DNA from: Candidatus Omnitrophota bacterium
GTDB taxonomy: Bacteria > Omnitrophota > Gorgyraeia > Zapsychrales > JAHFFX01
DNA length: 64,000 bases
Assembly: GCA_023247725.1 (NCBI GenBank)
Contig: JAHFFW010000006.1
Location: forward strand, 11,210 to 75,209
Reading direction: 5' to 3'
Shown: one piece after another, positions 31,389 through 50,499 of the stretch
Position numbering within the stretch: position 1 is the stretch's first letter
How the letters are laid out: each line of letters opens with the position of its first letter
Notes under the pieces: generated by a model
Seen by the model: the letters and a program-made list of their open reading frames with translations, nothing else
Database searches by the model: none
What the model was told of the DNA's origin: nothing
Translations under genes and position numbers: made by a program

Positions 31389-31552
31389 ACCATCCGCTGG
31401 CTATCGGCGATGATCCGCGTTAAATCTGTCTTGTGAAAAATACTCGCACATCACGTTAAAGATTAAAACCCTTTAAAAACAAATTTTCAGGAACCCAATT
31501 GAATTTTTGGGACGAATTTCATTGCCTTGAGAACTTTGATCTTCAAAGAGGC

Positions 31553-31589
31553 TGCGCGGGCTTTTTTTGCAAACAAAAAAAGCCCGCGC
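31553..31589. repeat. Perfect palindrome GCGCGGGC-T7-GCAAAC-A7-GCCCGCGC (15-bp stem) 19 nt downstream of the glnK stop
   Basis: Read directly. The U-tract lies inside the stem rather than after it, so this is not a canonical intrinsic terminator in either direction. Confidence 0.5.
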
Positions 31590-31607
31590 CTCCCAAACTT
31601 CCTGAAC

Positions 31608-31949
31608 CTACCCAATCGCCAAAGGACCCTCGTCGCCAGTTCTGATCCGGATGCAGCGCGGAAGATCCACAACGAAAATTTTTCCGTCACCAATTTTTCC
31701 GGTACGGGCACCCTTAATGACGGCTTTGATCGTCCTATCGACGAAATCTTCGTTCACGGCAATATCGATTCGAATCTTGCGCAGGAGGTTTCCCGTTTCC
31801 TTGCTTCCGCGATAAAATTCATCCACGCCCTTTTGGCGGCCGTGCCCCAAACATTCGCTGACGGTAATCAGATTCACATCCTGCTCATAAAGTGCTTTTT
31901 TGACTTCCTCCAACCGGTGCGGTTGGATAATGGCCGTAATCAATTTCAT
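31608..31949 (-). CDS. glnK: Nitrogen regulatory protein P-II
   Basis: 112-aa P-II with T-loop RGSKETG-like region and C-terminal GDGKIFV. Immediately downstream of amtB, SD AAGGAGA. Confidence 0.85.
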   Translation of the reverse strand: MKLITAIIQPHRLEEVKKALYEQDVNLITVSECLGHGRQKGVDEFYRGSKETGNLLRKIRIDIAVNEDFVDRTIKAVIKGARTGKIGDGKIFVVDLPRCIRIRTGDEGPLAIG

Positions 31950-31981: not shown

Positions 31982-33226
31982 TTACTCGAGGATCGTATAA
32001 GCCCGTTCGTGATGTTGGGTCAAGTCCAGCCCCAGCACTTCTTCTTCTGGGGAAACCCTTAAGCCTACCATCACGTCGATGATCTTTAGTAATATAAACG
32101 AGCCGAACCCGGACCAGAGAATCGTTATCCCAACGGCCTTCAGTTGAATAAGCACTTGTGCAGGATTGCCGTAAAAGAAACCATCCGCGCCACCGGAGTT
32201 GACCGCTTTGGTCGCGAACAATCCTGTCCCAATGGCACCCCACATTCCTCCCACACCGTGCACGCCAAAGACATCCAACGTATCGTCGTAACCGAATTTA
32301 GCCTTAATGACGCTAACCGCGAAAAAGCAAAATACGCTGACGAGGAGCCCGATCATGATTGCCCCCCTCACATCGACAAATCCCGACGCGGGGGTGATGG
32401 CAACCAGACCCGCAACCGCTCCTGTGATCACACCGAGCGTGGTGGGCTTGCCATTTTTAATCCATTCGATCACGGCCCAGCTAAGGCCCGCCGCGGCGGT
32501 CGCCACGTGAGTGACCACAAAGGCACTCGTGGCTAATCCTCCGCCTGCTGCCAGAGCACTGCCGGCATTGAACCCAAACCAGCCAAACCACAACAGACAT
32601 GCCCCCAGAACCGCAAATGGTAAATTATGCGTAGACAGATGAGAGGGTCCGTGTCTCTTACCCATGACTAAACACGCCACGAGTGCGGCAACACCAGCGT
32701 TGAGATGAACGACCGTTCCACCGGCAAAATCCAGAGCCCCCATGTTACGAACATGACCACCAAAGGCCCACACCATATGACAAATCGGATCGTAGACGAA
32801 GAAAGACCAAAGGATCAGAAACAGACAATAAGCGGAAAATTTCATGCGCTCGGCGAAAGCTCCAATGGCCAAAGCCGGCGTGATGATGGCAAACATCATT
32901 TGAAATATCATGAAGGCTTGATGAGGAACGGTTGTGGCATACGGGGAGGGCTCAAAGCCAACTCCATTAAGCAAAAACCCATTGAGATTACCAATGATAC
33001 CGCCGATGAAACTTTCGGATCCCTTCCCAAAAGCAAGGCTATAACCTCCCAATACCCATTGCAATGACACGATGCACAAGGCCCCGAGACACTGGATGAG
33101 AATTCCCAAAACATTCTTGCGACGAACCAAACCGCCGTAGAAAAACGCCAAACCTGGCGTCATGAGCATAACCAGCGCCGAAGAAGTCAGCACCCACGCG
33201 GTATCTCCTGTATTAATTGCGTCCAT
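31982..33226 (-). CDS. amtB: Ammonium transporter
   Basis: 11-TM Amt/MEP signature (DFAGGTVVH, twin His HGVGG region). 414 aa. SD AGGAG. Confidence 0.9.
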   Translation of the reverse strand: MDAINTGDTAWVLTSSALVMLMTPGLAFFYGGLVRRKNVLGILIQCLGALCIVSLQWVLGGYSLAFGKGSESFIGGIIGNLNGFLLNGVGFEPSPYATTVPHQAFMIFQMMFAIITPALAIGAFAERMKFSAYCLFLILWSFFVYDPICHMVWAFGGHVRNMGALDFAGGTVVHLNAGVAALVACLVMGKRHGPSHLSTHNLPFAVLGACLLWFGWFGFNAGSALAAGGGLATSAFVVTHVATAAAGLSWAVIEWIKNGKPTTLGVITGAVAGLVAITPASGFVDVRGAIMIGLLVSVFCFFAVSVIKAKFGYDDTLDVFGVHGVGGMWGAIGTGLFATKAVNSGGADGFFYGNPAQVLIQLKAVGITILWSGFGSFILLKIIDVMVGLRVSPEEEVLGLDLTQHHERAYTILE

Positions 33227-34046
33227 GTCCGTTCTCCTTAAGTTTGATCTTCCCTAATAATATAATGAGAATAAAACCAAGAACAACAACCGGTGTTCTC
33301 CCCCTGCCGGTAGGCTCTTGGACGCCATTGCCCAAAAAAAAATTCCCCCAACAGCCTAGACGACGGCCATTGGAGGACTTCTGTGCCCTACCTAATTCCT
33401 CGAATTCCTATCACCTTGTTGCCTCAAATTTTTTGCTCGAGGGTAAAATCGAAGACGCCAATGCCTTCAACTTTTGCCCAAGTATAATAATGCGCCTTGG
33501 ACTTGTCAAGAAAATTTTCTAACGCTGACAAAGCCGAAAACATTCGCTGACAAATTTTCTTATGCGTGAATAAATTTGGAACAAAACAGACAAAAATCAA
33601 AAAACAGGATCCCGAGACTAAAGCCGATGGCAAGGCGTTCCAAACTTTTGGCCCAGGCATCGGAGTGTTCATTAGGATTGGTCATCGCCTCTATCCTCCT
33701 TACTCGTTGGTATAACAAAAAAGCCCAGCCCCAGTGTCACCCGGCGACTGAGCGTCTGCGCTTTTTTTATTTTCTAAACCCGAAGATTTAAAAAATAAAC
33801 CCCACCGAAAGCGATCCCTGCTCTCCAATGGGGCGTCATTGCCCAAAACAAAAACTCTCTAACGGAATTTCCATTAGAGAGCCACGTTGCTCTTTACTTC
33901 CAGATGAATACTTCTTGATCTGGACTCCAAGGCCTCACTGTCTTGGATGAAAGGAAGTATATCGGCTGGCTCACGCGTTGTCAAGTTTTTTGTTCCTTTA
34001 AATCGGGAGCCACCTGTGACCGCTTAACCTGGTCACAAGACACCTG

Positions 34047-34121
34047 AAAAAAAACGAGCGGCCCTCCCTTGACCCCGTTCAAAAAACAAACGCAAGCCAA
34101 GGAGGGAGAACGGGGCCGCTC
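34047..34121 (-). terminator. Rho-independent terminator 24 nt downstream of the MOSC gene (end of the nitrate-reductase operon)
   Basis: Minus-strand GAGCGGCC...GGCCGCUC GC-rich stem with alternative inner pairings, followed by U8. Confidence 0.5.
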
Positions 34122-38765: not shown

Positions 38766-40106
38766 TCAAAGGCTGAAAGTGGTCTGCACATACACAAAGT
38801 CCGCATCGTCATTGGCACCGGTTTCGGCCAGATAGTCCCCCGAGAAGAAATGCGAATATCCAACCTGGATAGCGGTGGAATTATTCAATTTGTAATCGGC
38901 CGTCAAGTCGATTTCGTCGCCAAGATGATCGTCCACAGCGGTCGTGGCCGTGCGCACGACCGATCGGGCGGCGTTATAATAAGAATCCTTGACGGTATCA
39001 AGATAAAACCGATGCCACTCGGCCTGAAGCTTCAATTTTTTATGGGGTTTGGCGCTCAGCTGATAATGAAACTGGTTGGTATTCTGCAGACTCACAAAGT
39101 CGATGAACCCATAAAAGAGGTGATTCGTCGGATAAAGATTGTCGAAGGTCTTGAGTTCATTGTCGGTGGGATCATCGTCCCCGGAACCGTAGGTGAATTC
39201 AAACGCCGCTCGAGGCTGCCATGGCAACCGGAAGGTGTAGCCAACAATCGCCACGGCCATACCCGCATTCACATCTTTACCGAGAAAATCGCCAAACTGC
39301 CGGGCTGCTTCCACTTCATAATCCCAACCGCTTTTGAATGCCTTCTTGACGCGGCCACCTACTGTGTAATCATCCACCTGCCCCGAGCCGCTGGGCCCGA
39401 AGGAAATATTCTTATCGGTTTCCCGGCGGAATAAATAATGTTCCAAAAGTGTCTCGCCGAAGGCCTTGGCCGTCACGTCATATCCCCAAAGCCGTTCCCG
39501 CGATGATCCATCGTACAAATCATCAAATTCCCGCGGACTTTTGATGGAAGTTTTATCGCCTCCGAAGAGATCGACCTGGAGATGATAAGGAACGAAATGA
39601 AAACCCATCCGGCCCCCGTCAAAGGTCTGGGCCACATTCGACCAATTGAATCCGCCGATCAACCGCTGGGCGCCAAACGAAAATTCCTGACGTCCCGGCC
39701 TAATGGAAAGCTTATTCATTTGCAGCGGTTCAAAAATAATATCGTCGGTATAATCCACATATAGCTGGCGGATATCGAAGTAATTTTCAAAGAGCGCCTT
39801 ATTGACCGTATTCGATTCCCAGATTCGGGCGTCCTGACCCTGAATAAAGAATCCCAGTTCTTTGACAGGATTGTATTTGAGATTGAGGCGCGTTCGTTCC
39901 AGATGAAAGGCATCTTCATCATCGCGGGAATCGTTAAAATCAAAATTGTTCCGGTATTCCAGGCGGTAGCGGAATTCCAAATCCGTTTTCAGCTGGCTCG
40001 GCAGATATTTATTAATGACATCCCCGGCGAAAACCTCCCCGCCCAATTCCAAAAAAGCCAGGATAAACAAAAACACAGCGCTGCCCTGTCCCCAAATTTC
40101 TCGCAT
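38766..40106 (-). CDS. Outer-membrane beta-barrel of the alginate-export (AlgE-like) porin family
   Basis: Signal peptide, alternating amphipathic beta-strands rich in Y/F/G, family-level similarity to the alginate_exp domain. SD AAAGGAG. Confidence 0.6.
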   Translation of the reverse strand: MREIWGQGSAVFLFILAFLELGGEVFAGDVINKYLPSQLKTDLEFRYRLEYRNNFDFNDSRDDEDAFHLERTRLNLKYNPVKELGFFIQGQDARIWESNTVNKALFENYFDIRQLYVDYTDDIIFEPLQMNKLSIRPGRQEFSFGAQRLIGGFNWSNVAQTFDGGRMGFHFVPYHLQVDLFGGDKTSIKSPREFDDLYDGSSRERLWGYDVTAKAFGETLLEHYLFRRETDKNISFGPSGSGQVDDYTVGGRVKKAFKSGWDYEVEAARQFGDFLGKDVNAGMAVAIVGYTFRLPWQPRAAFEFTYGSGDDDPTDNELKTFDNLYPTNHLFYGFIDFVSLQNTNQFHYQLSAKPHKKLKLQAEWHRFYLDTVKDSYYNAARSVVRTATTAVDDHLGDEIDLTADYKLNNSTAIQVGYSHFFSGDYLAETGANDDADFVYVQTTFSL

Positions 40107-40229
40107 TGAAAGCTCCTTTCTCTCATAGACTTCATGCGTAAAATCTCCGGGAACATCGGCGCTCCCTCCAGCGTCTTTTCCTTCTACGGTTTAAGAACGA
40201 CTGGCCGGCCTTCATCGGTTGATTTCATA

Positions 40230-40562
40230 TCAACCCACGGCTGCCTTTGCACTCGTTTCTATCATGACGGTTTGAGAAACTTCTTTTGATTTCTTGTTCC
40301 TTCCTTCCAAAAAATTGTTGACCGGTCGCTTGCGGATAAACCTGCCGGACCCCCCAGCATGACATTTTCCATCGCCGTCAACCAGGGAAGCAGACTGGGC
40401 GCCTGGAAAACCACGCCGCGGTCCGGGCGCGCTTTTGGGGATCAGTTCCTCATAGAATCCCATCGCTTGGATCTGTTTGAAATCCTTCTTCATGGCGAAG
40501 ACTTCCACCGCCGAGAGATCCTGATACTTTTGCAGGTATTCATTGATGAGGTTCTGCGACAT
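40230..40562 (-). pseudogene. Degenerate duplicate of the 5' end of the FeS-NrfD gene (remnant or pseudogene)
   Basis: aa 5-45 match the N-terminal extension of 37011-38633 ([44 protein letters not shown] vs [44 protein letters not shown]). DNA 40420-40560 aligns with 38490-38640. The frame is lost after PGP, so the Cys motifs are lost. No SD. Confidence 0.5.
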
Positions 40563-41784
40563 ATGCTATCCCGGCTTCCGTTTTAAATGCGGTTTGCTTT
40601 GAAACAATCCTGGGAAAACTCCATCCCCTTTGAACAAACTGCAGCGTTATTAAAGCCCCGAGGCCTGTGCAGGCAAAAACCAGAAAGCCAACCCCGTAGG
40701 AACCAGCCGCATCCTTAAAGAATCCAAGGACCGTTGGAAGAATAAATCCTCCCAGCCCCCCCGCGGCTCCTACAATGCCGGTAATAATGCCAATCTCCTT
40801 CCGGAATCTTAAAGGGACCAGCTGAAAAACCGAACCATTGCCCATACCCAAACAGCTCATTCCAGCAAAAATAAGAAGCGTCACTAATCCAATGGGAGGC
40901 AGGCGACTGATGCCGATCATGAAGACCGCAATGGCGCTAAAAAGGATGGAGAGCATGCGGATGCCGCCAAACTTATCGGCAAGATAGCCTCCGACGGGTC
41001 TTAAGAAACTTCCGGCAGCCACACACAGCGCGGTGAAATTACCCGCCGCTACTTTGCTCAAGCCGTACTGGTCATGAAAAAAGATTCCTAAAAAACTTGC
41101 GAGGCCCACAAACCCTCCGAACGTAATGCTGTAAAAAAAACAGAACCAGAACGTATCCGCTTCCCGCAAGACGGAAAAATAATCCGCGAGTCGTTTGGGC
41201 GCCGGCTGCTCCGGGCTCTCTTTCGCGAATATCATATAAATAGCCAACGTTAAAAGAACAGGAATGATGGCCAGGCCGAATATATTGTGCCAGCCGTAGA
41301 CCTCCGCCAGCCGCGGCGCAAAAAGGCTGGCCAGAACCGTGCCGCTGTTTCCGGCTCCGGCGATCCCCAGGGCCATTCCCTGATGCCGGGGCGGATACCA
41401 ACGGCTCGCCAGAGGCAACGCCACGGCAAAACTTCCACCCGCAATCCCCAAGAGGAAGCCGAAAAAAATCACCTGATGAAACGACAGAGCGAAAAGCCAA
41501 ACACCTAAAAGAGGAATAAGAACAATGAGCTGGCCTAAGATCCCCGTTTTTTTGGGACCGATGTGGTCCACCAAAAGCCCCAGCGGGATTCGTACCAGCG
41601 ATCCGCCCAAAAGAGGAATGGCCGCCATAAACCCTTTCTGAGTGGCCGTAAGGCCGAAATCTTTGGCGATATAAACACCGAGGACACCCATCAGGACCCA
41701 GACCATGAAACTAATATCAAAATAGAGGAACGCCGAAAAAAGAGTGGGTGGATGACCGCTTTTGGCAAAGTCTTTTAATCGCAT
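40540..41784 (-). CDS. narK: MFS nitrate/nitrite transporter (NNP family)
   Basis: 12-TM MFS with NNP glycine-rich signatures (GFMAAIPLLGGSLVRIPLG, GAAGGLGGF). ATG at 41784 with AGGAGG SD. 10 nt downstream of nirD. Confidence 0.8.
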   Translation of the reverse strand: MRLKDFAKSGHPPTLFSAFLYFDISFMVWVLMGVLGVYIAKDFGLTATQKGFMAAIPLLGGSLVRIPLGLLVDHIGPKKTGILGQLIVLIPLLGVWLFALSFHQVIFFGFLLGIAGGSFAVALPLASRWYPPRHQGMALGIAGAGNSGTVLASLFAPRLAEVYGWHNIFGLAIIPVLLTLAIYMIFAKESPEQPAPKRLADYFSVLREADTFWFCFFYSITFGGFVGLASFLGIFFHDQYGLSKVAAGNFTALCVAAGSFLRPVGGYLADKFGGIRMLSILFSAIAVFMIGISRLPPIGLVTLLIFAGMSCLGMGNGSVFQLVPLRFRKEIGIITGIVGAAGGLGGFILPTVLGFFKDAAGSYGVGFLVFACTGLGALITLQFVQRGWSFPRIVSKQTAFKTEAGIAYVAEPHQ

Positions 41785-41811
41785 ATTAGCCTCCTCAATC
41801 AATTTCCCTTG

Positions 41812-42126
41812 TCATTTCTCCAGGATGATTTGCCCTTGTTCCTGTCGAATTTTGAAAACCGCAACGCATTCTCCGGCCTCACTCCCTTGACCGGTTTGAA
41901 AATCAAACTTATGCCCGTGCAGAGGGCACACCACCTTCCCGTCGCCAATCACCCCTTCCGACAGGGGACCCCCTCGATGGGGACAATGATTCTCGACGGC
42001 AAAAATTGTTCCGCTGCGGGAACGGAAGACCGCGATTTCCCGTCCGTGAACGACAAAACACCGGCCCTGCCCCACAGGGATTTGATCAACCGGGCCTAAA
42101 AGAACCTTTGAATTTTGACCAATCAT
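41812..42126 (-). CDS. nirD: Nitrite reductase [NAD(P)H] small subunit (Rieske-like)
   Basis: CPHRGGPL...CPLHGHKF Rieske-type motifs. ATG at 42126 immediately after the nirB stop. The longer ORF-track N-terminus would overlap nirB. Confidence 0.8.
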   Translation of the reverse strand: MIGQNSKVLLGPVDQIPVGQGRCFVVHGREIAVFRSRSGTIFAVENHCPHRGGPLSEGVIGDGKVVCPLHGHKFDFQTGQGSEAGECVAVFKIRQEQGQIILEK

Positions 42127-42130
42127 GTTT

Positions 42131-44638
42131 CTAACCGTTGTTTTCCGCTTCGTGCAAAACCTCGATGAGGCGCGGACCTTCAAATTGATGCGGATACGCC
42201 GGAAACTCCGCTTCCTGCCATGGATCCCGATAAGCCTCGACCGCTTCCGCAATCCTTTCGTCCAGCTGGGCACAAATCCCTAACGAATCCTGCACGAGGA
42301 TTCCCTTCAAGATCTCGATCCCGATCCGCTCGGCAAAGCCATAGGTTCGTTCCAGATATTTGGCATGTTCCCGGTAATACTGAATGAAGCGTCCGATATA
42401 TTTGAGAACATCGTCATGGCTGTTGACGGTGCACAAAAGATCGCCTTTGCGCACCGAACTTCCGGCGGCACCGCCGACGTAAATCTCCCATTGCCCGCCT
42501 TCGATGGCGACGGCGCCAATGTCCTTGACGTAGGCCTCCGAACAATTGCGCGGACAACCGGCGGTCGCCAGTTTCATTTTGTGCGGAGATTCAATCCCCT
42601 GAAACCGCCGTTCGATCTTCTGAGCCAGGGCGATGGAGTCCCCGACGCCGTAACGGCAGAAATCCGTTCCCACGCAACTTTTGCAGGTGCGAAAGGCCTT
42701 CGTATAGGCATGGCCGCTCGGCATTCCCAGATCTTTCCAGATCGACGGCAAATCCTCTTTCCTGACGCCCAAAAGGTCGATCCGTTGCCCGCCGGTGATT
42801 TTCACCATCTTGACTTTGTATTTCATGGCGGCCTGGGCGATCCGCATCAATTCCTCGGGACTCGTCACGCCCCCATAAATCCGCGGCACGACGGAGAAGG
42901 TGCCGTCTTTTTGGATGTTGGCGTGCACGCGGTCATTGATAAAGCGCGCGTCGCGTTCATCGACGTACTCTTTAGGCCAAATGGTTTTGAGCAAGGACGC
43001 GAGACCGACTTTGCTATCGGGGTCTTCTTTGCCGCCGGCCAATTCTTGAAAAACCGCACTGACGGATTTTAATCCGCGGCTCTTGACCTCGGCGACCAGC
43101 TGGGATTTTTCGAGCGGTATCCCGGGCACATAAAAATGTTCAGATGGATCATAGGTCACCTCGCCCAGGCAAGACTCGATCAACTGCGCAATCAGTCCCC
43201 GGCAAGAACCGCAGCCTTTGCCGGCCTTGGTCTTTTTCCCAACGGCAGCCACCGTCTTGCAGTTGGCATCGAGAATCGCGTCGGTGATTTCTTTTTTGCA
43301 AACGCCATTGCAATTGCAAATCTGGGCGTTATCGGGAAGATCGGCAACGTTGATTAAGATCGCGTTTTTTACGGATCCAAAGAATAGTTCCGAGCGTTTG
43401 CTAGGAAGCCTTTCTTCGTTTAAAAACATCTGCATCAAAAGATCGCCGCCCTGCGTGTCACCCAGGAGAATGGCGCCGTAAATCCGGTCGTCGCGGATGA
43501 TCAGTTTTTTATAAATCGCGCGGTTCGGTTCGCGGTAGGTCACGACCTCATCCGACGGCTGCCCTTGTTCTTTTTCACCAAGGGACAATAGCTCGACCCC
43601 CATGACCTTGAGCTTGGTCCCGGTCTTTGAACCGGTATAGGTGGCCTGAGGATTTTTTTCGGTGATCACATCCGCCAAGACCCTGGCCTGTTCCCAGATG
43701 GGATCGACCAGACCGTACAGCTTGCCGCGGTGCTCCGCGCATTCCCCCAAAACAAAAATGTCGGCGTCGCTCGTCCGCATTTGGTCATCGCAAACGATGC
43801 CTTTGTTGACGGCGATTCGAGAATTCTGGGCCACCTCCGTGATTGGACGAATGCCGGCACTGACGATGACCATATCTGTTTCCAGGGTTGTCCCGTCGGC
43901 AAACGAAAGGGAAGAAATCTGCCCGTCACGCGAGTGGATCTTGGCAGTTTTCGTCCCGGTCAAAACGCGCAGGCCCATCGATTCCATGGTTCTTCTCAAT
44001 AACTGTCCTGATTCCTGATCCAGTTGGGCGGCCATCAATTGAGCGGCCGCTTCGATGACGGTCACCTCGACGTTATGGGTCAATAGACCGCGGGCCGCCT
44101 CCAATCCCAGAAGACCGCCGCCGATGACCGCGGCCTTGCGGCAATCTCGCGCGTACTGCGCAATGGCAGAGCAGTCATCGATCGTTCGGAATAAAAATGT
44201 TCCCGGGGCACCGAATCCTTCCATCGGCGGGACAAAGGGCCGCGAGCCCGTAGCGATAATCACGTGATCATAGGATTCCTCGACGATATCACTTTTAGGA
44301 AGGATGTCATCGTTATGGGCATAAGGCAATTGTCCCTGAGGGACATTCACTCCTAAAACAACCCTTCGTTCGCGATCGATCTTAAAGGCCTTGATGCCGG
44401 CATGCAGATGGATGGAATTTTCTTTGTACCAGGAAAGAGGATTGAGAAAGATTTCTTGCGGCTCTTGAGTTTGGTTGAGGACATTGCTTAATAAAATCCG
44501 GTTATAATTCCCATACGGTTCGGCTCCGAACATGGAGATATCAAATCTTCCCGGCACTCGCTTGAGGATTTCCTCGACCACACGGGCTCCGGCCGTGCCA
44601 TTGCCGATCACCACCAATTTCTGCTTGAAATTTTTCAT
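42131..44638 (-). CDS. nirB: Nitrite reductase [NAD(P)H] large subunit (835 aa)
   Basis: N-terminal FAD/NAD Rossmann VVIGNGTAG, BFD-like 2Fe-2S, C-terminal sirohaem/4Fe-4S nitrite/sulfite reductase domain. SD GAGGAA. Confidence 0.9.
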   Translation of the reverse strand: MKNFKQKLVVIGNGTAGARVVEEILKRVPGRFDISMFGAEPYGNYNRILLSNVLNQTQEPQEIFLNPLSWYKENSIHLHAGIKAFKIDRERRVVLGVNVPQGQLPYAHNDDILPKSDIVEESYDHVIIATGSRPFVPPMEGFGAPGTFLFRTIDDCSAIAQYARDCRKAAVIGGGLLGLEAARGLLTHNVEVTVIEAAAQLMAAQLDQESGQLLRRTMESMGLRVLTGTKTAKIHSRDGQISSLSFADGTTLETDMVIVSAGIRPITEVAQNSRIAVNKGIVCDDQMRTSDADIFVLGECAEHRGKLYGLVDPIWEQARVLADVITEKNPQATYTGSKTGTKLKVMGVELLSLGEKEQGQPSDEVVTYREPNRAIYKKLIIRDDRIYGAILLGDTQGGDLLMQMFLNEERLPSKRSELFFGSVKNAILINVADLPDNAQICNCNGVCKKEITDAILDANCKTVAAVGKKTKAGKGCGSCRGLIAQLIESCLGEVTYDPSEHFYVPGIPLEKSQLVAEVKSRGLKSVSAVFQELAGGKEDPDSKVGLASLLKTIWPKEYVDERDARFINDRVHANIQKDGTFSVVPRIYGGVTSPEELMRIAQAAMKYKVKMVKITGGQRIDLLGVRKEDLPSIWKDLGMPSGHAYTKAFRTCKSCVGTDFCRYGVGDSIALAQKIERRFQGIESPHKMKLATAGCPRNCSEAYVKDIGAVAIEGGQWEIYVGGAAGSSVRKGDLLCTVNSHDDVLKYIGRFIQYYREHAKYLERTYGFAERIGIEILKGILVQDSLGICAQLDERIAEAVEAYRDPWQEAEFPAYPHQFEGPRLIEVLHEAENNG

Positions 44639-44648
44639 CCGCTATTCC

Positions 44649-44702
44649 TCAACAAAAGAGGCCTCACCCGCCGAGTTCTAAATCTGGTGCGGGTGAGGCC
44701 TC
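44649..44702 (-). terminator. Leader terminator/attenuator T2: 14-bp perfect stem GAGGCCUCACCCGC-N17-GCGGGUGAGGCCUC, then UUUUGUU, 11 nt before the nirB SD
   Basis: Read directly from the sequence. Confidence 0.55.
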
Positions 44703-44710
44703 ATTGCCTC
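44695..44710 (-). promoter_or_regulatory. ANTAR-type target hairpin: 5-bp stem + hexaloop GAGGC-AAUGAG-GCCUC (A1, G4) overlapping the 5' arm of T2
   Basis: Matches the published ANTAR RNA-motif geometry. The cognate GAF-ANTAR gene is adjacent. Confidence 0.45.
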
Positions 44711-44914
44711 TGGACAAAAAGAAGCTTCCTAAATGGCCCTGCTTCGCCAAATTGTCCTTCGACGTTTGCTCACGGTCCTTCGAACGGTCCTGAAGTAAGG
44801 TTGAAGGAGGTGCTGAGCGTCGTCGAAGGATCGGCTACGCAGGGTTTATCCGTCTGCCTGGGTCGAATCTTTGCCTTTTGTCTGGGAAAACCGACCTACC
44901 TAGCGGAGGCGGAT

Positions 44915-44953
44915 AAAAAAAATCCCGATGGCCATGAATTCGGCTTCATCGGG
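44915..44953 (-). terminator. Leader hairpin T1 CCCGAUG-N16-CAUCGGG followed by U8
   Basis: Read directly. Lies inside the nirB 5' leader. Confidence 0.45.
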
Positions 44954-45020
44954 CTTCTGTGTCCGTCGTTCTTCAGTGAAAAAAGATTTTTGCGACAACT
45001 CTGCCGCCAAAATCGTTTCA

Positions 45021-45048
45021 AATATAATTCAAGCGTAAATGTTTGTCA
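45021..45048 (-). promoter_or_regulatory. Sigma70-type promoter of the nirBD-narK operon (-35 TTGACA, 17 nt, -10 TATATT)
   Basis: Plus-strand TGTCAA 45043-45048 and AATATA 45021-45026. About 375-nt leader. Confidence 0.45.
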
Positions 45049-45100
45049 AGCAATCTTTTCGTTTCGATAGGAATCTCGTCGACGTTTTTGCAAAATTACT

Positions 45101-46330
45101 TTATTTCTTTTGCAGCTCATCCATCAGGATGATCGACTCAGCGATCTCTTTCATCGATCGGCAGGAATCCATACTTTTTTTATGAATCAATCGATAAGCG
45201 GATTCCTCCGAAAGACCATTTAAACGCATGAGGATCCCCTTGGCGCGCTCGATGAGCTTGCGGGTCGATAGCGCCTCGCGCGCCTTTAAGGCCTCTTCCA
45301 TGAGCTTGGTATTCTCGACCGCAACGGCCGCCTGGTTGGCGATCATCCGCAAAGCGGCAATCTCATCCTGACTGAAGTGATGCGGAGTTTTGGTGTAAAC
45401 ATTGATGATACCGATGGCTTTTTCTTTCACAATCATGGGGACCGAAAGCATGGAGGTCAATTCTTCCTTGACCGCGAGGTCGCGGTACATATAGCGGACT
45501 TCCTGCCGCACATCAAAAACGGTTAAAGGGATTTTGCTGCGAATGACTTCCCCACTTAAGGAATTATTGACCCGGACATTCGGCTTGCGCTTGTATTCTT
45601 CGCTCAGGCTCTGCGTTGCCTTGATCGCGAGCTCCTCGGCTTTTTCATCAAGGAGCATGATCGAGCAGATTTTGGAGTTGAGCATCTCCGCCGTCACAAC
45701 AACGATTAAATTGAGAATCTCGTCGAGATAGCGTTCGGAGGTGATCGTGTGGCTCACCTTGACCAAACTATCGAGCTGAGTGGCCTTCTTTTTGGTTTCG
45801 GCAAACAACCGCGCGTTTTCGATGACGCCGCCGACCTGTTTGGCGATGGTGTGGATGAGATTCACCATATTCGCCGGGTAGGCATGCGGTTTGCGGTGTT
45901 GAACATTGATGACTCCGATCGCCTTGCCTTGATAAATGATGGGGACAGACAAAAAAGCCTCGTAGCGATCCTCTGGCAGGACATCAAAATTCTTGAACCG
46001 CGGATCTTGATAAGCATTCTTCTTGATGGCAACCGGCTTATTCTCCTTGGCAACCCAACCGGTAATTCCCTCGCCGACCTTGAGAATCACCCGGCCGACT
46101 TCCTTTTTGTGCGGGGTTTTGGAAGCGGACAACACCAAGTTGGTCTTTTTGTCGTCGAAGAGATAGATAAAGACGGAATCGGCTTGAGTCGCGTCATTGA
46201 CAATCTTTACCACTTCCTGGAGAATCCAAGGAAGATCGAGCTCGGAGCTTGTAATATCAACGATCTTGCGCAAAATTTTAATTTCCTGTCTAGAAACATT
46301 TCCGCTTTTATTGCTCGTTGCCATGTCCAT
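45101..46330 (-). CDS. GAF-GAF-ANTAR RNA-binding antitermination regulator (NasT/NasR-like)
   Basis: Two GAF domains, then C-terminal ANTAR (LIERAKGILMRLNGLSEESAYRLIHKKSMDSCRSMKEIAESII). ATG at 46330 (MDMATS) with AAGGGG SD. The ORF-track extension would overlap the upstream gene. Confidence 0.8.
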   Translation of the reverse strand: MDMATSNKSGNVSRQEIKILRKIVDITSSELDLPWILQEVVKIVNDATQADSVFIYLFDDKKTNLVLSASKTPHKKEVGRVILKVGEGITGWVAKENKPVAIKKNAYQDPRFKNFDVLPEDRYEAFLSVPIIYQGKAIGVINVQHRKPHAYPANMVNLIHTIAKQVGGVIENARLFAETKKKATQLDSLVKVSHTITSERYLDEILNLIVVVTAEMLNSKICSIMLLDEKAEELAIKATQSLSEEYKRKPNVRVNNSLSGEVIRSKIPLTVFDVRQEVRYMYRDLAVKEELTSMLSVPMIVKEKAIGIINVYTKTPHHFSQDEIAALRMIANQAAVAVENTKLMEEALKAREALSTRKLIERAKGILMRLNGLSEESAYRLIHKKSMDSCRSMKEIAESIILMDELQKK

Positions 46331-46332
46331 CG

Positions 46333-46788
46333 TTACCCCTTGATCTTGGGAAGGCCAAACCACAATTGCCATTGAATCAGCACAAATAAAACCAAAAAGG
46401 TCAACGCCAGCATGAAACCAAAAAAAAACATCTGGGCCGCGAACCAGCTTGAGAAGCGCACAAACCACATGGACCCGATATCAGAGATAATGAAGACCGG
46501 AACCAAAACGGCCACCAGGCGCTTCATTTTTTCTGTGTAGCCGCTCAGCAAAAAGATGCCGAGCGTCATTCCCCAGACCCCAATCATCCAAAATAAATAC
46601 TTAAACGTATGCTCAGCCAATTCCGCGGTTTCGAAGGAGCCATACCCTTGCGCAATCAAGGCAACCTGCATCCTGGTATCCAACCAGATTTCCAACAAAA
46701 GCAAGAGATAATTGAGTCCCACCAAACACAGCCAAAAACTGACGAACCATCGGGCGCTGTGAGGCCATTGGCGGATATCGGTGAACAT
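46333..46788 (-). CDS. Polytopic membrane protein (4 TM) translationally coupled to the ANTAR regulator
   Basis: Strongly hydrophobic helices. Its stop lies 2 nt before the regulator's ATG. Start at ATG 46788 or TTG 46812. Confidence 0.5.
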   Translation of the reverse strand: MFTDIRQWPHSARWFVSFWLCLVGLNYLLLLLEIWLDTRMQVALIAQGYGSFETAELAEHTFKYLFWMIGVWGMTLGIFLLSGYTEKMKRLVAVLVPVFIISDIGSMWFVRFSSWFAAQMFFFGFMLALTFLVLFVLIQWQLWFGLPKIKG

Positions 46789-46853
46789 AAAAAAACGCTT
46801 TTTGCTCGACAATGAAAATTGCTAATTCCACGGCGCTGGTTTATACTAAATCC

Positions 46854-47024
46854 ATGACGTACGTCATCGCGATTTTAGTTTTGGCCGTTTGCTTTGGACT
46901 CCTGTGCGCAGGTCTCCTGTTTGCCCGCCGCGCCCTGCGTAAAGGCTGCTCTTTGGGTCCAGACTGTCATTGTAAAACCGAATCGACCAGGCCCACGCCC
47001 GATGAAGAGTGTGAGCACCATTGA
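46854..47024 (+). CDS. Small single-TM Cys-rich protein resembling the Na+-NQR maturation factor NqrM (DUF539)
   Basis: TM helix, then RRALRKGCSLGPDCHCK...EEC (four Cys after the helix). Convergent to nqrF. No SD. Confidence 0.4.
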   Translation: MTYVIAILVLAVCFGLLCAGLLFARRALRKGCSLGPDCHCKTESTRPTPDEECEHH

Positions 47025-47065
47025 CCTTAAAATTTCCCTCGTCGAAGTTCGCCTCTTCCTAATAA

Positions 47066-47108
47066 TCAATTCACCCTTTTTGGGGGGTGAATTGATTATT
47101 CCGTCATT
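47066..47108. repeat. 16-bp perfect-stem hairpin AATAATCAATTCACCC-N8-GGGTGAATTGATTATT between nqrF and the NqrM-like ORF (possible bidirectional terminator)
   Basis: Read directly. Confidence 0.5.
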
Positions 47109-47120
47109 AATGATCACCGT

Positions 47121-48350
47121 TTAACCAAACGAATCAAACGCGATCATGTCTTTAGGAACGCCCAAATGATCCAGCATTTTTTGAACCGCCTCGATCATCA
47201 TGGGCGGTCCGCATAGATAATATTCGCCCTCTTCCGGCTCGGGATGATTCTTTAAATAATTCTCATAAATCGCCTGATGGATAAATCCGGTCATCCCTTT
47301 CCAATTGTCCTCGGGCAAGGCGGCCGAGAGCGCCACATTATATTTGAAATTGGAATATCTGCTTTCGATGTCGTGAAAATCCTCGGTATAAAACATCTCT
47401 CTTTTGGAACGCGCGCCGTACCAGTAACTGACCTTCCGCTTGGTTTTCAGGGTGTGAAAAAGATGAAATAAATGCGCACGCATCGGCGCCATTCCCGCAC
47501 CGCCGCCGATATAAATCATTTCCCGATTTGTATCTTTAATAAAAAATTCGCCATACGGTCCGCTGAGGGTAGCTTCGTCACCGGGCTTGAGGCCAAAAAT
47601 ATACGAAGAGGCCTTTCCCGGCGGCAGGGTCATGTCCTTGGGGGGTGGCGTGGCGATCCGGACATTTAACATCGCAATGCCTTTTTCCGCCGGGGCATTC
47701 GCCATGGAATAGGCCCGGAACATCGGCTCATCATTCTTGCAGCGGAGGTCCCACAATTTGTATTTATCCCAATCCGGATGATATTCCTTTTCAATGACAA
47801 AATCCTTAAAGTGGACCTCAAAAGTCGGGATATCAATCTGGATGTAACCACCAGCCTTAAAATCTAAATGCTGGTCCTTGGGCAATTCCAAAATCAATTC
47901 TTTAATAAAGGTCGCGACGTTGCGGTTGGAACGAACCTTGCCGTGAAATTTTTGAATATGAAAAACCTCATCGGGGATCTTGATTTTGAGGTCATTGCGG
48001 ACTTTCACCTGACAAGCCAGACGATAATGCTCCTTTTGCTGCCGGCGCGTCAATTGGCCAGTTTCCGTCGGAAGAATATTCCCCCCTCCTTCCAAAATCT
48101 GGCACTTGCACATCGCGCAAGTTCCCCCGCCGCCGCACGCGGAAGGCAAAAAAATCTTTTGATTGGCTAAGGTGAAAAGAAGGTTCGTTCCGGCCGAGAC
48201 GACCAGCGGGGTGGGATCCTCATTGACAAAAATCTTGCAATCGCCGGACTTAACGACCTTGGCTTTCACAAAGGAGAGGATAACGACCAGCAACAAAATA
48301 ACGGCAGTAAAAACGAGGGTACTAACAAAAACGTAGAAAACCAATGCCAT
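47121..48350 (-). CDS. nqrF: Na+-translocating NADH:quinone oxidoreductase subunit F
   Basis: N-terminal TM, 2Fe-2S ferredoxin [19 protein letters not shown] domain. Confidence 0.9.
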
Positions 48351-48372
48351 GGCTAACCCTGTATCTAAATTT

Positions 48373-48456
48373 ATTTAAACAAATTCCGGATACACGGATA
48401 ACCGGCCAGCCGGATTCCCGCTTTCCGGATGACCAAATCACCGAATATCCGTTACA
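48373..48456. repeat. GGTTATCCGG-family repeat copy (rearranged) between nqrE and nqrF
   Basis: Shares CGGATAACCGG and CCGGATTCCCGCTTTCCGGATG with the copies at 2239-2304 and 14622-14718. Confidence 0.5.
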
Positions 48457-49060
48457 GCCGGATCCCGGCAAAACACATGAATCCGACGGACATTAACCCT
48501 GTCAGAAGCATCGTGATCCCCAAGCCCTTGAGCGGTCCGGGAATATTGGAATAACCGAGTTTTTTGCGGATGGCTGACATGGAAATGATCGCCAGGGCCC
48601 ACCCGATTCCGGAACCGGTTCCGTAAACAAAGGATTCGGGGCCATTATAATTTCTTTGGTCCATAAAAAGCGCGCCGCCCAGGATGGCACAATTGACCGC
48701 AATCAACGGAAGAAAAATCCCCAAGGCGTTATACAACGCCGGCGAGAAGCGTTCGACGACCATCTCAGTAATTTGGGTCATGGCGGCAATGACAGCGATA
48801 AAACTGATAAAGATGAGAAAGCTCAGATCAATATTAGGCAATCCGGCCCAGGCCAGCGCCCCTTTCTTTAAAAGAAAATTCTTAATCGCCCAGCATGTCG
48901 GGGTGCAGATCGCCATGACAAAGACAACGGCACAGCCCAAGCCGATGGCGGTTTCCACCTTTTTGGAACAGGCCAGGAACGAACACATCCCCAGAAAAAA
49001 GGCGAGAAGAATATTTTCCACAAAAATGCTTTTGATCGCGAGATTGATATAATGTTCCAT
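48452..49060 (-). CDS. nqrE: Na+-NQR subunit E
   Basis: Full-length NqrE/RnfA-family similarity, 202 aa. Confidence 0.9.
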
Positions 49061-49696
49061 TTATTGACCCTCCACATAACGGCTGAGGGATCGCTGGATC
49101 CAAATGATGCATCCCAAAAGAAAAAATGCCCCCGGGGCCAAGACCAGCATGCCGTTGTTGACATATCCGGCCGCGTAAAACGCCTTCGGCACGACGGAAA
49201 ATCCCAATAAGGTGCCGCTGCCAAAAATTTCCCGGATCGTTCCCAGAATGATCAAAACGCTGCTGTATCCTAAACCATTGCCAAGACCATCGAGAAAAGA
49301 TTTCCACGGCGGGTTGCCCATGGCAAAGGCCTCGAGTCGCCCCATGACAATGCAATTGGTGATGATCAGGCCCACGAATACGCTCAATTGCTTGCTGACA
49401 TCGTACATATATGATTTTAAAATTTGATCGATCGTAATGACCAGCGCGGACACGACCGTCAATTGCACAATAATGCGGATCTGCGGCGGAATGAAATTCC
49501 GAATGCAGGAAATGACGACATTCGACATCGCGGTCACAAACGTCAGACCAAAGGCCATAATCATCGCCGTTTTCAATTGAGTGGTCACGGCCAATGAGGA
49601 ACAGATGCCCAGGATCTGAAAGGTCACGGGATTCGCATCCCACAGGCCGTCCTTGATAATCTTTTTATTTTTTTGGGAAAGCAGTGCTTCTGGCAT
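49061..49696 (-). CDS. nqrD: Na+-NQR subunit D
   Basis: Full-length NqrD/RnfE-family similarity, 211 aa. Confidence 0.9.
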   Translation of the reverse strand: MPEALLSQKNKKIIKDGLWDANPVTFQILGICSSLAVTTQLKTAMIMAFGLTFVTAMSNVVISCIRNFIPPQIRIIVQLTVVSALVITIDQILKSYMYDVSKQLSVFVGLIITNCIVMGRLEAFAMGNPPWKSFLDGLGNGLGYSSVLIILGTIREIFGSGTLLGFSVVPKAFYAAGYVNNGMLVLAPGAFFLLGCIIWIQRSLSRYVEGQ

Positions 49697-49773
49697 GGAA
49701 CTCCTCCTTATATTTTTAAGCTACAAAATATTATATCATTCTTTCCGTCGGTAATAATCATTCAATCTTTCCT

Positions 49774-50499
49774 TCACGAAATTTTTCTCACTTTGCTGAA
49801 ATAAGGTTCATACAATCGCAAGGTTCGATCCAGCATTTCGGTCACACCGTTGCCGGTGATCGTGGCCGCGGTGATTCCATCGACCGCATGATTTAAGGCT
49901 TCTCCCTGCGCGTGGTTGGCGGCCTTGCCCTTGACCACGATGATCGGAGTGAGCGCTTTTTTCTCAAGGGAGTAAATCGTCTTCCCCTTAAAATTATTCT
50001 GAAACCATTCCTTTTCAATTTCAGCGCCAAGCCCTGGGGTTTCGCCGTGTTTATAAAAGGTGATGCCTCGGACCTTAACCGCATCGCCTTCTAACGCCAG
50101 ATAGCCGTACAGCGTGGACCAAAGGCCTTGTCCCACGATGGGAAAGGCGTAGGAAACCACCTCTTCGTCTTCCCTATATATATAGAGGGGAAAGAGGCCC
50201 TCTTTTCCCTTAATGTCCTTGGGCTTGATGCCTTCGACAACATTGCCGTCTTTATCAATCACGACTTCCTCAATCTTATTTTCATAAACCTTAAGAACGT
50301 CGGGTCCTTTGGCTTGGGCTGGAATCGGTTCTTTCAAAACGACGGCCTTGAGGATATTCTTTTTGATATCCAAATCAAAATTCAATTCCTGTTTCTCCCG
50401 GAACCCTTCCGAGACCGCTGATAACAGCACTCCGCACACAATGCACACGACCGCGGCAAAACCAAACACATAGCCTGTGGAATTGATATTGAACTTCAT
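49774..50499 (-). CDS. nqrC: Na+-NQR subunit C (FMN-binding)
   Basis: N-terminal TM and FMN-binding domain with the conserved Thr context (VDGITAATITG). Confidence 0.85.
   Translation of the reverse strand: MKFNINSTGYVFGFAAVVCIVCGVLLSAVSEGFREKQELNFDLDIKKNILKAVVLKEPIPAQAKGPDVLKVYENKIEEVVIDKDGNVVEGIKPKDIKGKEGLFPLYIYREDEEVVSYAFPIVGQGLWSTLYGYLALEGDAVKVRGITFYKHGETPGLGAEIEKEWFQNNFKGKTIYSLEKKALTPIIVVKGKAANHAQGEALNHAVDGITAATITGNGVTEMLDRTLRLYEPYFSKVRKIS

Follow-up and report, generated by a model that had tools for sequence, protein, structure and literature searches.

The DNA considered here is a stretch of 64,000 nt (the window) from an uncultured Candidatus Omnitrophota bacterium (Omnitrophota; Gorgyraeia; Zapsychrales; JAHFFX01), in which it occupies positions 11,210-75,209 of the forward strand of contig JAHFFW010000006.1 (assembly GCA_023247725.1). 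All coordinates below are window positions, and all features of the nirB leader lie on the minus strand. Between 27512 and 46330, the window carries a nitrogen-assimilation island that is encoded on one strand throughout. It begins with the gene for a one-component regulator with two GAF domains and an ANTAR domain and continues with nirB and, reaching to 34665 and recognised by Pfam matches, a Rieske-type nirD, a NarK-like transporter of the major facilitator superfamily (MFS), a porin, an FeS/DmsC protein and a molybdopterin oxidoreductase; further along come the gene of a MOSC protein, then amtB, glnK, glnA and GSIII, the last of which encodes a type III glutamine synthetase. The regulator gene and nirB are separated by an intergenic region of 462 nt, and the subject of this analysis is the nirB leader within that region and its probable control by the GAF-GAF-ANTAR protein.

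According to Pfam, the regulator combines a pair of GAF domains with a complete ANTAR domain and has neither a NIT nor a REC domain; it therefore belongs neither to the NasR/NasT type nor to the GnfR type. The ANTAR match covers profile positions 2-54 of the 54 in PF03861 at 74 bits (cut-off 27.3; E 8e-21) and corresponds to residues 395-447 of the 455-aa open reading frame (ORF) translation (45101-46468) that was used for the Pfam scan; the domain thus stands at the C terminus, after the signal-input domains, as in the antiterminators of PF03861. A comparison with PDB structures, numbered here on the protein of 409 aa (45101-46330), places GAF1 nearest to EI-Ntr GAF domains (3ci6, E 1e-20; 3trc, E 1e-17) and to NifA-like proteins, and the ANTAR region matches Rv1626, EutV and NasR (1s8n, 6wsh and 4akk). 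At E<=1e-20 the protein has 5879 homologues, assigned to Candidatus Omnitrophota wherever a source is named, the nearest of which are 72-83% identical.

The nirB leader is laid out as a promoter, hairpin P1, 26 nt, hairpin P2 overlapping terminator T1, a 204-nt spacer, hairpin P3 overlapping terminator T2, and a Shine-Dalgarno sequence (Table 1). The near-consensus promoter, which the initial annotation had placed ~375 nt upstream of the nirB ATG, is the best sigma-70-like site in 44000-46000; it predicts a transcript start at ~45014 and a leader of ~376 nt. The other elements described in that annotation were likewise recovered. First, the proximal 7-bp hairpin (CCCGAUG / CAUCGGG, with an inner GCC/GGC) is followed by its U8 tract, a single A lying between the two. 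Second, the distal terminator, given as 44649-44702, has a perfect 14-bp stem (GAGGCCUCACCCGC / GCGGGUGAGGCCUC) around a 17-nt loop; the possibility that this stem is a dispersed repeat was rejected, because the arms of T2 are the only two copies of the 14-mer in the window. Third, the last 8 nt of P3 (44702-44695) are the first 8 nt of T2. One distance had to be corrected, in that the Shine-Dalgarno sequence, said to lie 11 nt after the distal stem, is found 7 nt past it, directly after the U-tract. The upstream partner of the hexaloop hairpin, which the first reading by eye had failed to locate, is indeed absent at T2, whereas a pair of hairpins, P1 and P2, exists at the proximal T1. P1 stands at the predicted 5′ end of the transcript, has a six-base loop with A at position 1 and G at position 4 (A1/G4) and overlaps no terminator; P2 shares CCCG (44953-44950, 4 nt) with the 5′ arm of T1. 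At both terminators, hairpin and terminator are accordingly mutually exclusive structures.

Table 1. Elements of the nirB leader and of two further leaders in the window, with the adjoining genes
Feature	Position	Strand	Details
GAF-GAF-ANTAR one-component regulator gene, 409 aa	45101..46330	minus	Pfam and PDB matches; presumed antiterminator
Sigma-70-type promoter, TTGACA-17-TATATT	45021..45049 (TTGACA 45049-45044; TATATT 45026-45021)	minus	11/12 consensus positions
P1, 5′-terminal hairpin, GCGGC-AGAGUU-GUCGC	core 45007-44992; extended 44985..45014	minus	-11.8 kcal/mol (extended stem)
P2, A1/G4 hexaloop, CGGAC-ACAGAA-GCCCG	44950..44965	minus	one internal A.C mismatch
T1, proximal intrinsic terminator	44915..44953 (stem 44953-44924, then A, U8 44922-44915)	minus	-14.5 kcal/mol
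Structured spacer between T1 and P3, 204 nt	44711..44914	minus	long irregular hairpins in minimum-energy fold
P3, A1/G4 hexaloop, GAGGC-AAUGAG-GCCUC	44695..44710	minus	-7.2 to -8.7 kcal/mol
T2, distal intrinsic terminator	44651..44702 (stem 44702-44658, UUUUGUU 44657-44651)	minus	-31.7 kcal/mol
Shine-Dalgarno GAGGA and nirB	42131..44650 (GAGGA 44650-44646)	minus	Pfam for nirB
nirB	42131-44638 (ATG 44638-44636)	minus	Pfam
Second leader	33789..33984	minus	upstream of 41-aa ORF (33685-33560); model R1 19.0 and 15.2 bits
Second leader, promoter	33984-33956	minus
Second leader, P1, CCAAGAC-AGUGAG-GCCUUGG	33946-33927	minus
Second leader, P2, AGAGC-AACGUG-GCUCU	33893-33878	minus	overlaps T1 (33883-33853)
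Second leader, P3, GGGC-AAUGAC-GCCC	33844-33831	minus	overlaps T2 (33834-33799)
Third leader	33268..33509	minus	upstream of amtB-glnK-glnA; model R1 19.8, 18.0 and 16.3 bits
Third leader, promoter	33509-33481	minus
Third leader, P1, GAAGGC-AUUGGC-GUCUUC	33468-33451	minus
Third leader, P2, AGGGC-ACAGAA-GUCCU	33389-33374	minus	overlaps T1 (33377-33344, then U9)
Third leader, P3, GGGC-AAUGGC-GUCC	33333-33320	minus	overlaps T2 (33321-33277)
amtB	31982-33226	minus	Pfam; behind third leader
glnK (PII)	31608-31949	minus	Pfam; behind third leader
glnA	29821-31284	minus	Pfam; behind third leader, GSIII further on

How might such a leader control nirB? We consider that the nirB leader is, as far as can be read from its sequence, a tandem of two ANTAR-type attenuators, and that attenuation is probably exerted by the adjacent GAF-GAF-ANTAR protein, to which we assign a probability of roughly 0.75. 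The promoter, strong and probably constitutive, would start the leader, and the transcript would by default end at T1 or else at T2. Each terminator is much more stable than the hairpin that competes with it (-31.7 against -7.2 kcal/mol for T2 and P3, and -14.5 against -1.3 kcal/mol for T1 and P2), so that termination should be the default state and read-through should depend on a factor able to capture P2 and P3 during their synthesis. The active form of the GAF-GAF-ANTAR protein, presumably a dimer that responds to a signal of presumed identity and sign, would bind the hexaloops as they emerge, first P1, then P2 and then P3. With P2 and P3 held closed, the terminator stems would be blocked, and transcription would continue into nirBD and the genes for the MFS transporter and nitrate reductase. 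Antitermination by a hairpin that captures a terminator arm is the established mechanism of ANTAR proteins (PMC3369931). Structural work on EutV has shown that the minimal site is one hexaloop bound by a dimer and that P1 and P2 are bound in succession (PMC8934654). Such a single-hexaloop minimal site accommodates a P3 without a close partner, and the successive-binding model fits, and suggests, a relay from P1 to P2 to P3.

This interpretation is supported, first, by conservation in related leaders. Three sets of loci were fetched, namely 80 from representative species with the regulator as anchor, the contigs of three close relatives, and 61 metagenomic loci with nirB as anchor, and we compared ten related Omnitrophota nirB leaders (L081, L083, L085, L086, L088, L090, L112, L121, L130 and L136). 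In all ten, a hexaloop hairpin precedes the last terminator and its 3′ arm runs into the 5′ arm of that terminator, and the terminator stems share no sequence with each other. The counterparts of P3 are GGGC-AAUGAG-GCCC (L085), GGGC-AAUGAA-GCCC (L083), GGC-AUUGAC-GCC (L081), GGC-AUAGAA-GCC (L090, L112, L130), UUGGGC-ACUGAA-GCUCAA (L088, L121), GGAC-AUUGAA-GUCC (L136) and GGC-GUUGAU-GCC (L086), with loops of the form A/G-N-N-G-N-N, mostly A-W-U-G-A-N. A terminator of different stem sequence also stands at the T1 position, and immediately before it GGAC-NNNGNN-GCCC is kept in L083, L085, L086, L090, L112 and L130, always with the same A.C mismatch. P1 is GCGGC-AGAGUU-GUUGC in L085 and GUGGC-AGGGUU-GUCAC in L086, the stem changes being compensatory; in other relatives it is altered, the loop always keeping G4 and having either A or G as its first base. 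Promoters of the form TTGACn-17-TATAnT likewise head the related leaders, in which the small hairpins and the terminators are the sole conserved parts. At nirB loci that are ~70-72% identical and lie in other gene contexts, which serve as a negative control, no hairpin-terminator element was found. The leader alignment proposed as a check in the initial annotation thus yields a conserved hexaloop hairpin, and the view taken there, that an ANTAR-type hairpin competes with the distal terminator, is borne out by these ten leaders and by the statistics given below.

We also observed that the A.C mismatch occupies the second pair of the stem, counted from the loop (GGAC...GCCC), at 44962/44953 and again at 33941/33932 in the window, as it does in the six relatives named above. 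Over all sites, that pair is A-U, G-C, G.U or A.C, and is thus always purine-pyrimidine. The C of the mismatch strengthens the competing terminator (CCC...GGG). The mismatch may serve to adjust the competition of hairpin with terminator, or the protein may tolerate it.

Second, the association of these hairpins with terminators exceeds chance. A single A1/G4 hexaloop hairpin is weak evidence by itself, since such hairpins with stems of at least 5 bp number 82 in the window, 55 of them on the minus strand; their combination with a strong terminator is rare. Such hairpins overlap 10 of the 268 loosely defined terminator-like sites in the window, and the five of these ten whose basal stems reach at least 12 bp (T2 of nirB and four at 33893-33344) are all in nitrogen-assimilation leaders. 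The three-hairpin, two-terminator design of the nirB leader indeed recurs in two more leaders, which lie within 33268-33984 and are each headed by a near-consensus promoter. The pattern GRCANNGNNGYC was found 23 times in the window, as compared with an expected 6.8 ± 2.7, and nine of the matches are the P hairpins of the three leaders; the remainder, situated within coding sequence without terminators, were set aside as background. For a selection that is blind to pairing, we required the 8-mer CANNGNNG at the 5′ arm of a strong terminator, for which 87 of 424 terminators qualified. Stem positions 2, 3 and 4 pair in 83%, 83% and 77% of the 88 unique CANNGNNG sites, as compared with 38-39% of 10,742 copies elsewhere, and covariation on that alignment is 0.39, against 0.215 after shuffling (reached in 0/500 shuffles) and 0.09-0.27 for slid partners. 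Finally, a covariance model of 20 positions (R1) was built from loci outside the window only. When both strands were searched, its top six window matches all fell in the three nitrogen leaders, on the coding strand; the second and third leaders gave the strongest of these (15.2-19.8 bits), and P3 of nirB ranked sixth (14.7 bits, E 0.47). The E-values of single sites are modest because the motif is small, and it is the clustering of matches that carries the weight.

Third, the motif is linked to genes for GAF-ANTAR proteins. Among the 77 regulator-anchored loci with downstream sequence, 19 have the motif with a terminator at most 1.5 kb downstream of the GAF-ANTAR gene and on the same strand; four more loci have it just upstream of the regulator gene, and nearly all remaining matches lie further downstream, again on the same strand. 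The downstream windows make up 9% of the sequence searched and contain about half of the motif matches. The loci concerned belong to Omnitrophota, Nitrospirota, Elusimicrobiota and others. In Nitrospira, whose regulator is ~51% identical, they show the canonical arrangement of P1, 20-27 nt, and P2 overlapping a terminator, for example GGGGAAC-AACGGC-GUUUCCC, 24-27 nt, and GGAC-AAUGGC-GUCC. The nirB leader and its surroundings present together stems of at least 3 bp with six-base A1/G4 loops, terminator overlap, covariation and an ANTAR protein nearby, and these leaders fit the hairpin definition of ANTAR target RNA given in Ramesh 2012 (PMC3369931). The linkage across several phyla supports the proposal in the initial annotation that the neighbouring GAF-GAF-ANTAR gene governs read-through.

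Further features of the regulator-anchored loci were noted. At about 6300-6372 of one Nitrospira locus (L017), a run of N directly upstream of the hairpin GGAC-AACGGC-GUCC masks P1. In four loci with single-GAF-ANTAR genes (L061, L064, L069 and L073), a hairpin with a terminator lies 45-107 nt upstream of the regulator gene itself, which suggests autoregulation in those lineages; upstream of the regulator gene of the window, no hairpin-plus-terminator element was found. In the amtB leaders of L002, L005, L006 and L037, a first hairpin, ~50-60 nt upstream of the hexaloop, has a loop of 7 or 8 nt that keeps A1 and G4 (GGGC-AUUGAUAA-GUCC, GGGGC-AAAGAUAA-GUCC and GGAC-AAAGAUA-GUCC), so that loop length does not appear to be strictly six in this family.

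Several observations weigh against control of the nirB leader by the adjacent protein. P1 was not detected by R1 at E<=10; P2 is barely stable alone, has an internal mismatch and scores 10.1 bits with an E-value of 6.3, and single-hairpin E-values are marginal in general. Within 75 nt of P3, no A1/G4 hexaloop with a stem of at least 4 bp is available as a partner, the nearest being P2, ~240 nt upstream; the tandem pair of Ramesh 2012 is accordingly present at T1 (P1 and P2) and missing at T2, where neither the dual-hairpin definition of 2012 nor the short linkers needed by EutV are found. In L083 and L085, it is a PAS-GerE gene that adjoins nirB, the ANTAR gene being 3-5 kb away. The ligand assignment discussed below takes its whole basis from GAF-domain similarity and regulon content. 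Lastly, 64 kb of the genome were inspected, and an ANTAR protein could be encoded elsewhere.

Marginal scores such as those of P2 and P3 (E 6.3 and 0.47), together with the frequency of A1/G4 hexaloops in the window, are what one might cite for T1 and T2 being ordinary terminators or stabilising structures that end or insulate upstream transcription, with nirB expressed from elsewhere and the hexaloops coincidental. Yet the 7 nt between T2 and the Shine-Dalgarno sequence leave no room for a promoter, and the sole good promoter is upstream of both terminators. Moreover, the overlap of hairpin and terminator has been kept in 10/10 related leaders despite complete turnover of the terminator sequence, and the pairing and covariation statistics, as well as the presence of the design three times in nitrogen leaders, speak against coincidence. 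We regard this explanation as very improbable. It is also unlikely, in our estimation, that the leader is an ANTAR-type attenuator served by a different ANTAR protein from outside the window, such as a REC-ANTAR protein of the GnfR or NasT type. The hairpin consensus does equal the site of the REC-ANTAR protein GnfR (PMC2995071), and ANTAR domains are thought not to be specialised by domain architecture (PMC7496416). However, the adjacent gene is the only ANTAR-coding sequence in the 64-kb window, and the motif accompanies GAF-ANTAR genes, on the same strand and across phyla, with the concentration in downstream windows described above.

The length of the leader and its strong folding (380 nt folded against shuffles gave z = -5.8, with 0/100 shuffles as good) could be taken to indicate a metabolite riboswitch or a leader-peptide attenuator that needs no protein. 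In an Rfam scan of 40000-50000 and 33200-34100 at E<=10, however, only chance matches were obtained (fstAT, sR17, RMST_9 and astro_FSE), with no family above chance in either leader region. A credible leader peptide was not found in the nirB leader: its TTG-start ORFs have no Shine-Dalgarno sequence, a 127-aa ORF on the opposite strand was judged spurious, and no ORF combines a plausible start with a Shine-Dalgarno sequence. Furthermore, the structured 204-nt part is unconserved, conservation being confined to the small hairpins and the terminators. An explanation of this kind is therefore extremely improbable. The spacer was rejected as a conserved element, since no homologue exists in 146 fetched loci apart from two 18-nt chance matches; its counterpart measures ~30 nt in L085 and ~14 nt in L083, and to judge from these loci it is specific to the lineage of the window. 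The spacer also holds UGGC-GAAGCAGG-GCCA (44749-44734), which overlaps a weak hairpin, GAAGC...GCUUC followed by UUUUU (~44744-44717). As the sole candidate for a classical P1 directly upstream of P3, it was rejected on account of its 8-nt loop; together with the weak hairpin, it may be a decayed third attenuator. The nirB leader of L136 contains three intact attenuators.

What signal might the GAF-GAF-ANTAR protein convey to these leaders? In relatives, the genes behind the motif include amtB, GSIII and the genes for glutamate dehydrogenase (GDH), glutamine-dependent NAD synthase (NadE), GOGAT-like proteins and a porin. The predicted regulon is thus general nitrogen assimilation, and the other two leaders of the window are most likely under the same regulator. 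The same elements stand before amtB-glnK-glnA in the window and, in relatives, before amtB, GSIII and the genes for GDH and NadE, which makes nitrogen status a likelier signal than nitrate; we favour cellular nitrogen status as the input with moderate confidence. The nitrogen signal put forward in the initial annotation is to that extent upheld by the content of the regulon, and a signal specific to nitrate is not.

The same RNA switch could in principle be specific for nitrate or nitrite, as with NasR or NasS/NasT; the GAF domains would then bind nitrate in the manner of NreA, and the regulator would induce the nir/nas operon only. GAF domains can bind nitrate, as in NreA. In both the window and L081, the regulator gene lies directly upstream of nirBD and the genes for the MFS transporter and nitrate reductase, and it is within 3-5 kb of nirB in L083, L085 and L086; the known ANTAR regulators of nas operons, in addition, respond to nitrate (PMC3369931, PMC3795266). 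Against this, leaders of the same design precede amtB-glnK-glnA here and amtB, GSIII, GDH and NadE genes in relatives, all of which respond to nitrogen limitation and not to nitrate, and GAF1 resembles the glutamine-binding GAF domain of EI-Ntr. The expectation that orthologues of the regulator adjoin nirB was rejected as well: in 0/80 species-representative loci is nirB found within 4 kb downstream of the regulator gene, whose usual neighbour is amtB. A switch dedicated to nitrate therefore seems improbable. In place of nitrate, glutamine or 2-oxoglutarate sensed through the GAF domains is a possible signal, which we advance tentatively. The GAF domain of NifA binds 2-oxoglutarate. That of EI-Ntr binds glutamine (PMC4848567).

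The type of switch proposed here is already established, in that antitermination of nitrogen genes by ANTAR proteins is known for NasR, NasT and GnfR and has been predicted computationally to be widespread. GnfR of Geobacter sulfurreducens, a REC-ANTAR protein, binds CAGGCAANGGCGCC, which overlaps the terminators of the glnK, amtB and nifH/nif leaders (Ueki and Lovley 2010; PMC2995071). Its RNA site, GGC-AANGGC-GCC, is the same as that represented by GGGC-AAUGGC-GUCC of the amtB leader in the window and by GGAC-AAUGGC-GUCC of Nitrospira, and the regulon shares the theme of nitrogen limitation. However, GnfR is a response regulator activated by the histidine kinase GnfK, whereas the window protein has two GAF domains, lacks a receiver domain and is a one-component regulator. 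The target promoters in Geobacter depend on RpoN, in contrast to the near-consensus sigma-70 promoters of the window, where nirBD and nitrate reductase genes are part of the operon as well and every leader has two terminators in series. NasR, a NIT-ANTAR protein acting on nasF in Klebsiella, and NasS/NasT, acting on nirBD/nas in Paracoccus, Azotobacter and Pseudomonas, resemble the present system in ANTAR antitermination of a nitrate/nitrite operon including nirBD (PMC3369931, PMC3795266, PMC10783516), in the A1/G4 hexaloop and in a regulator gene that adjoins the operon. They sense nitrate or nitrite, NasR by its NIT domain and NasT via its partner NasS, whereas the window protein has the GAF-GAF arrangement and the motif is also found at genes of the amtB/glnK/glnA type. 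With EutV/EutW of Enterococcus faecalis (Ramesh 2012; Walshe 2022), there is a common design of small A1/G4 hexaloop hairpins, the 3′ one overlapping the 5′ arm of a terminator, and of several attenuators per regulon. The eut linkers, however, measure 5-12 nt, and one of 14 nt abolished induction; here, linkers measure 26 nt between P1 and P2 (20-37 nt in relatives) and the distance from P2 to P3 is ~240 nt. In contrast to eut, the second and third hairpins of the compact leaders each overlap their own terminator, and the sensor domain and the pathway differ.

In Ramesh 2012, ANTAR motifs were also predicted before genes for PII, ammonium transporters, nitrite reductase and glutamine/glutamate synthesis in diverse bacteria, for example Desulfotomaculum acetoxidans and Pelobacter carbinolicus (PMC3369931). 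Those predicted regulons did not cover Omnitrophota, Nitrospirota or Elusimicrobiota, and an association with GAF-ANTAR proteins was not described. No GAF-ANTAR protein had been characterised at that time (PMC3369931); according to a paper of 2020, NasR and PAL were the only characterised one-component ANTAR proteins (PMC7496416), and a 2025 review of ANTAR mentions GAF only as a domain architecture. For Omnitrophota and Nitrospira, our literature search brought up no paper on ANTAR regulation. The present analysis would thus assign a target RNA and a regulon to an abundant architecture that has no characterised member in the cited papers of 2012 and 2020 and the 2025 review, and it suggests how nitrogen assimilation is controlled in phyla without a genetic system, including Omnitrophota and the environmentally important Nitrospira. 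Because Nitrospira can be cultured, the prediction is open to test in culture. The recurrent arrangement of two terminators in series, each with its own hexaloop, is also well suited to testing the recent model in which ANTAR proteins act by successive binding to single hexaloops.

We speculate, with rather less than even confidence, that GAF-(GAF)-ANTAR proteins may be widespread one-component master regulators that govern nitrogen assimilation in Omnitrophota, Nitrospirota (nitrite oxidisers among them), Elusimicrobiota, Desantisbacteria and further groups. Their EI-Ntr-like or NifA-like GAF domain would be the direct sensor of glutamine and/or 2-oxoglutarate, and the proteins would control amtB, glnK, glnA, GSIII, GDH, NadE and nirBD/nas purely by antitermination from constitutive promoters, taking the place of NtrC, GlnR or NtcA. 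In the relay of three hexaloops and two terminators, the polymerase would be rescued twice by one protein.

The gene order at nirB in the window is also found in L081, L086, L088, L112, L121 and L136. Among the closest relatives, nirB either adjoins the regulator gene (L081) or lies 3-5 kb from it, behind a PAS-GerE gene (L083, L085 and L086), and the direct adjacency of regulator and nirB is, on the loci compared, specific to the lineage of the window. In other Omnitrophota (L005 and L008), amtB and GSIII directly follow the regulator gene. It therefore looks as though, in the lineage of the window, a nir/nas block of ~11 kb that carries a leader of the same type was inserted between the regulator gene and amtB. 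Behind the second leader, just before amtB, the sole coding sequence is a hydrophobic ORF of 41 aa (33560-33685; MTNPNEHSDAWAKSLERLAIGFSLGILFFDFCLFCSKFIHA) with a strong AGGAGG Shine-Dalgarno sequence; it has no Pfam match and is at most a candidate for a small membrane protein connected with ammonium transport. When the leaders of glnA, GSIII, the ANTAR gene, the porin and the molybdopterin oxidoreductase in the window were read by eye, no convincing motif was seen.

Some of the relatives may add a further layer of control. A palindrome, ACCTA-N6-7-TAGGT, touches the -35 box of nirB in L083 (~9780-9800), L085 (~9390-9410) and L086 (~3230-3250). These palindrome-bearing relatives carry the gene of a PAS-GerE (LuxR-type) regulator beside nirB, and the window has neither the gene nor the palindrome. 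The palindrome is probably the operator for the PAS-GerE regulator. Because this gene and the putative operator stand beside an attenuated nirB, these relatives seem to control nirB twice over, at initiation and by attenuation. The PAS-GerE gene itself also has an ANTAR-type attenuator in L083, L085, L088 and L121.

Finally, a long GC-rich hairpin (GGCGCGGGCUUUUUUUGUUUGCAAAAAAAGCCCGCGC), flanked on either side by U- and A-tracts, was observed after glnK, at 31540-31610 on the minus strand. The glnA leader behind it contains no ANTAR-type element, and the hairpin itself looks like a bidirectional terminator.

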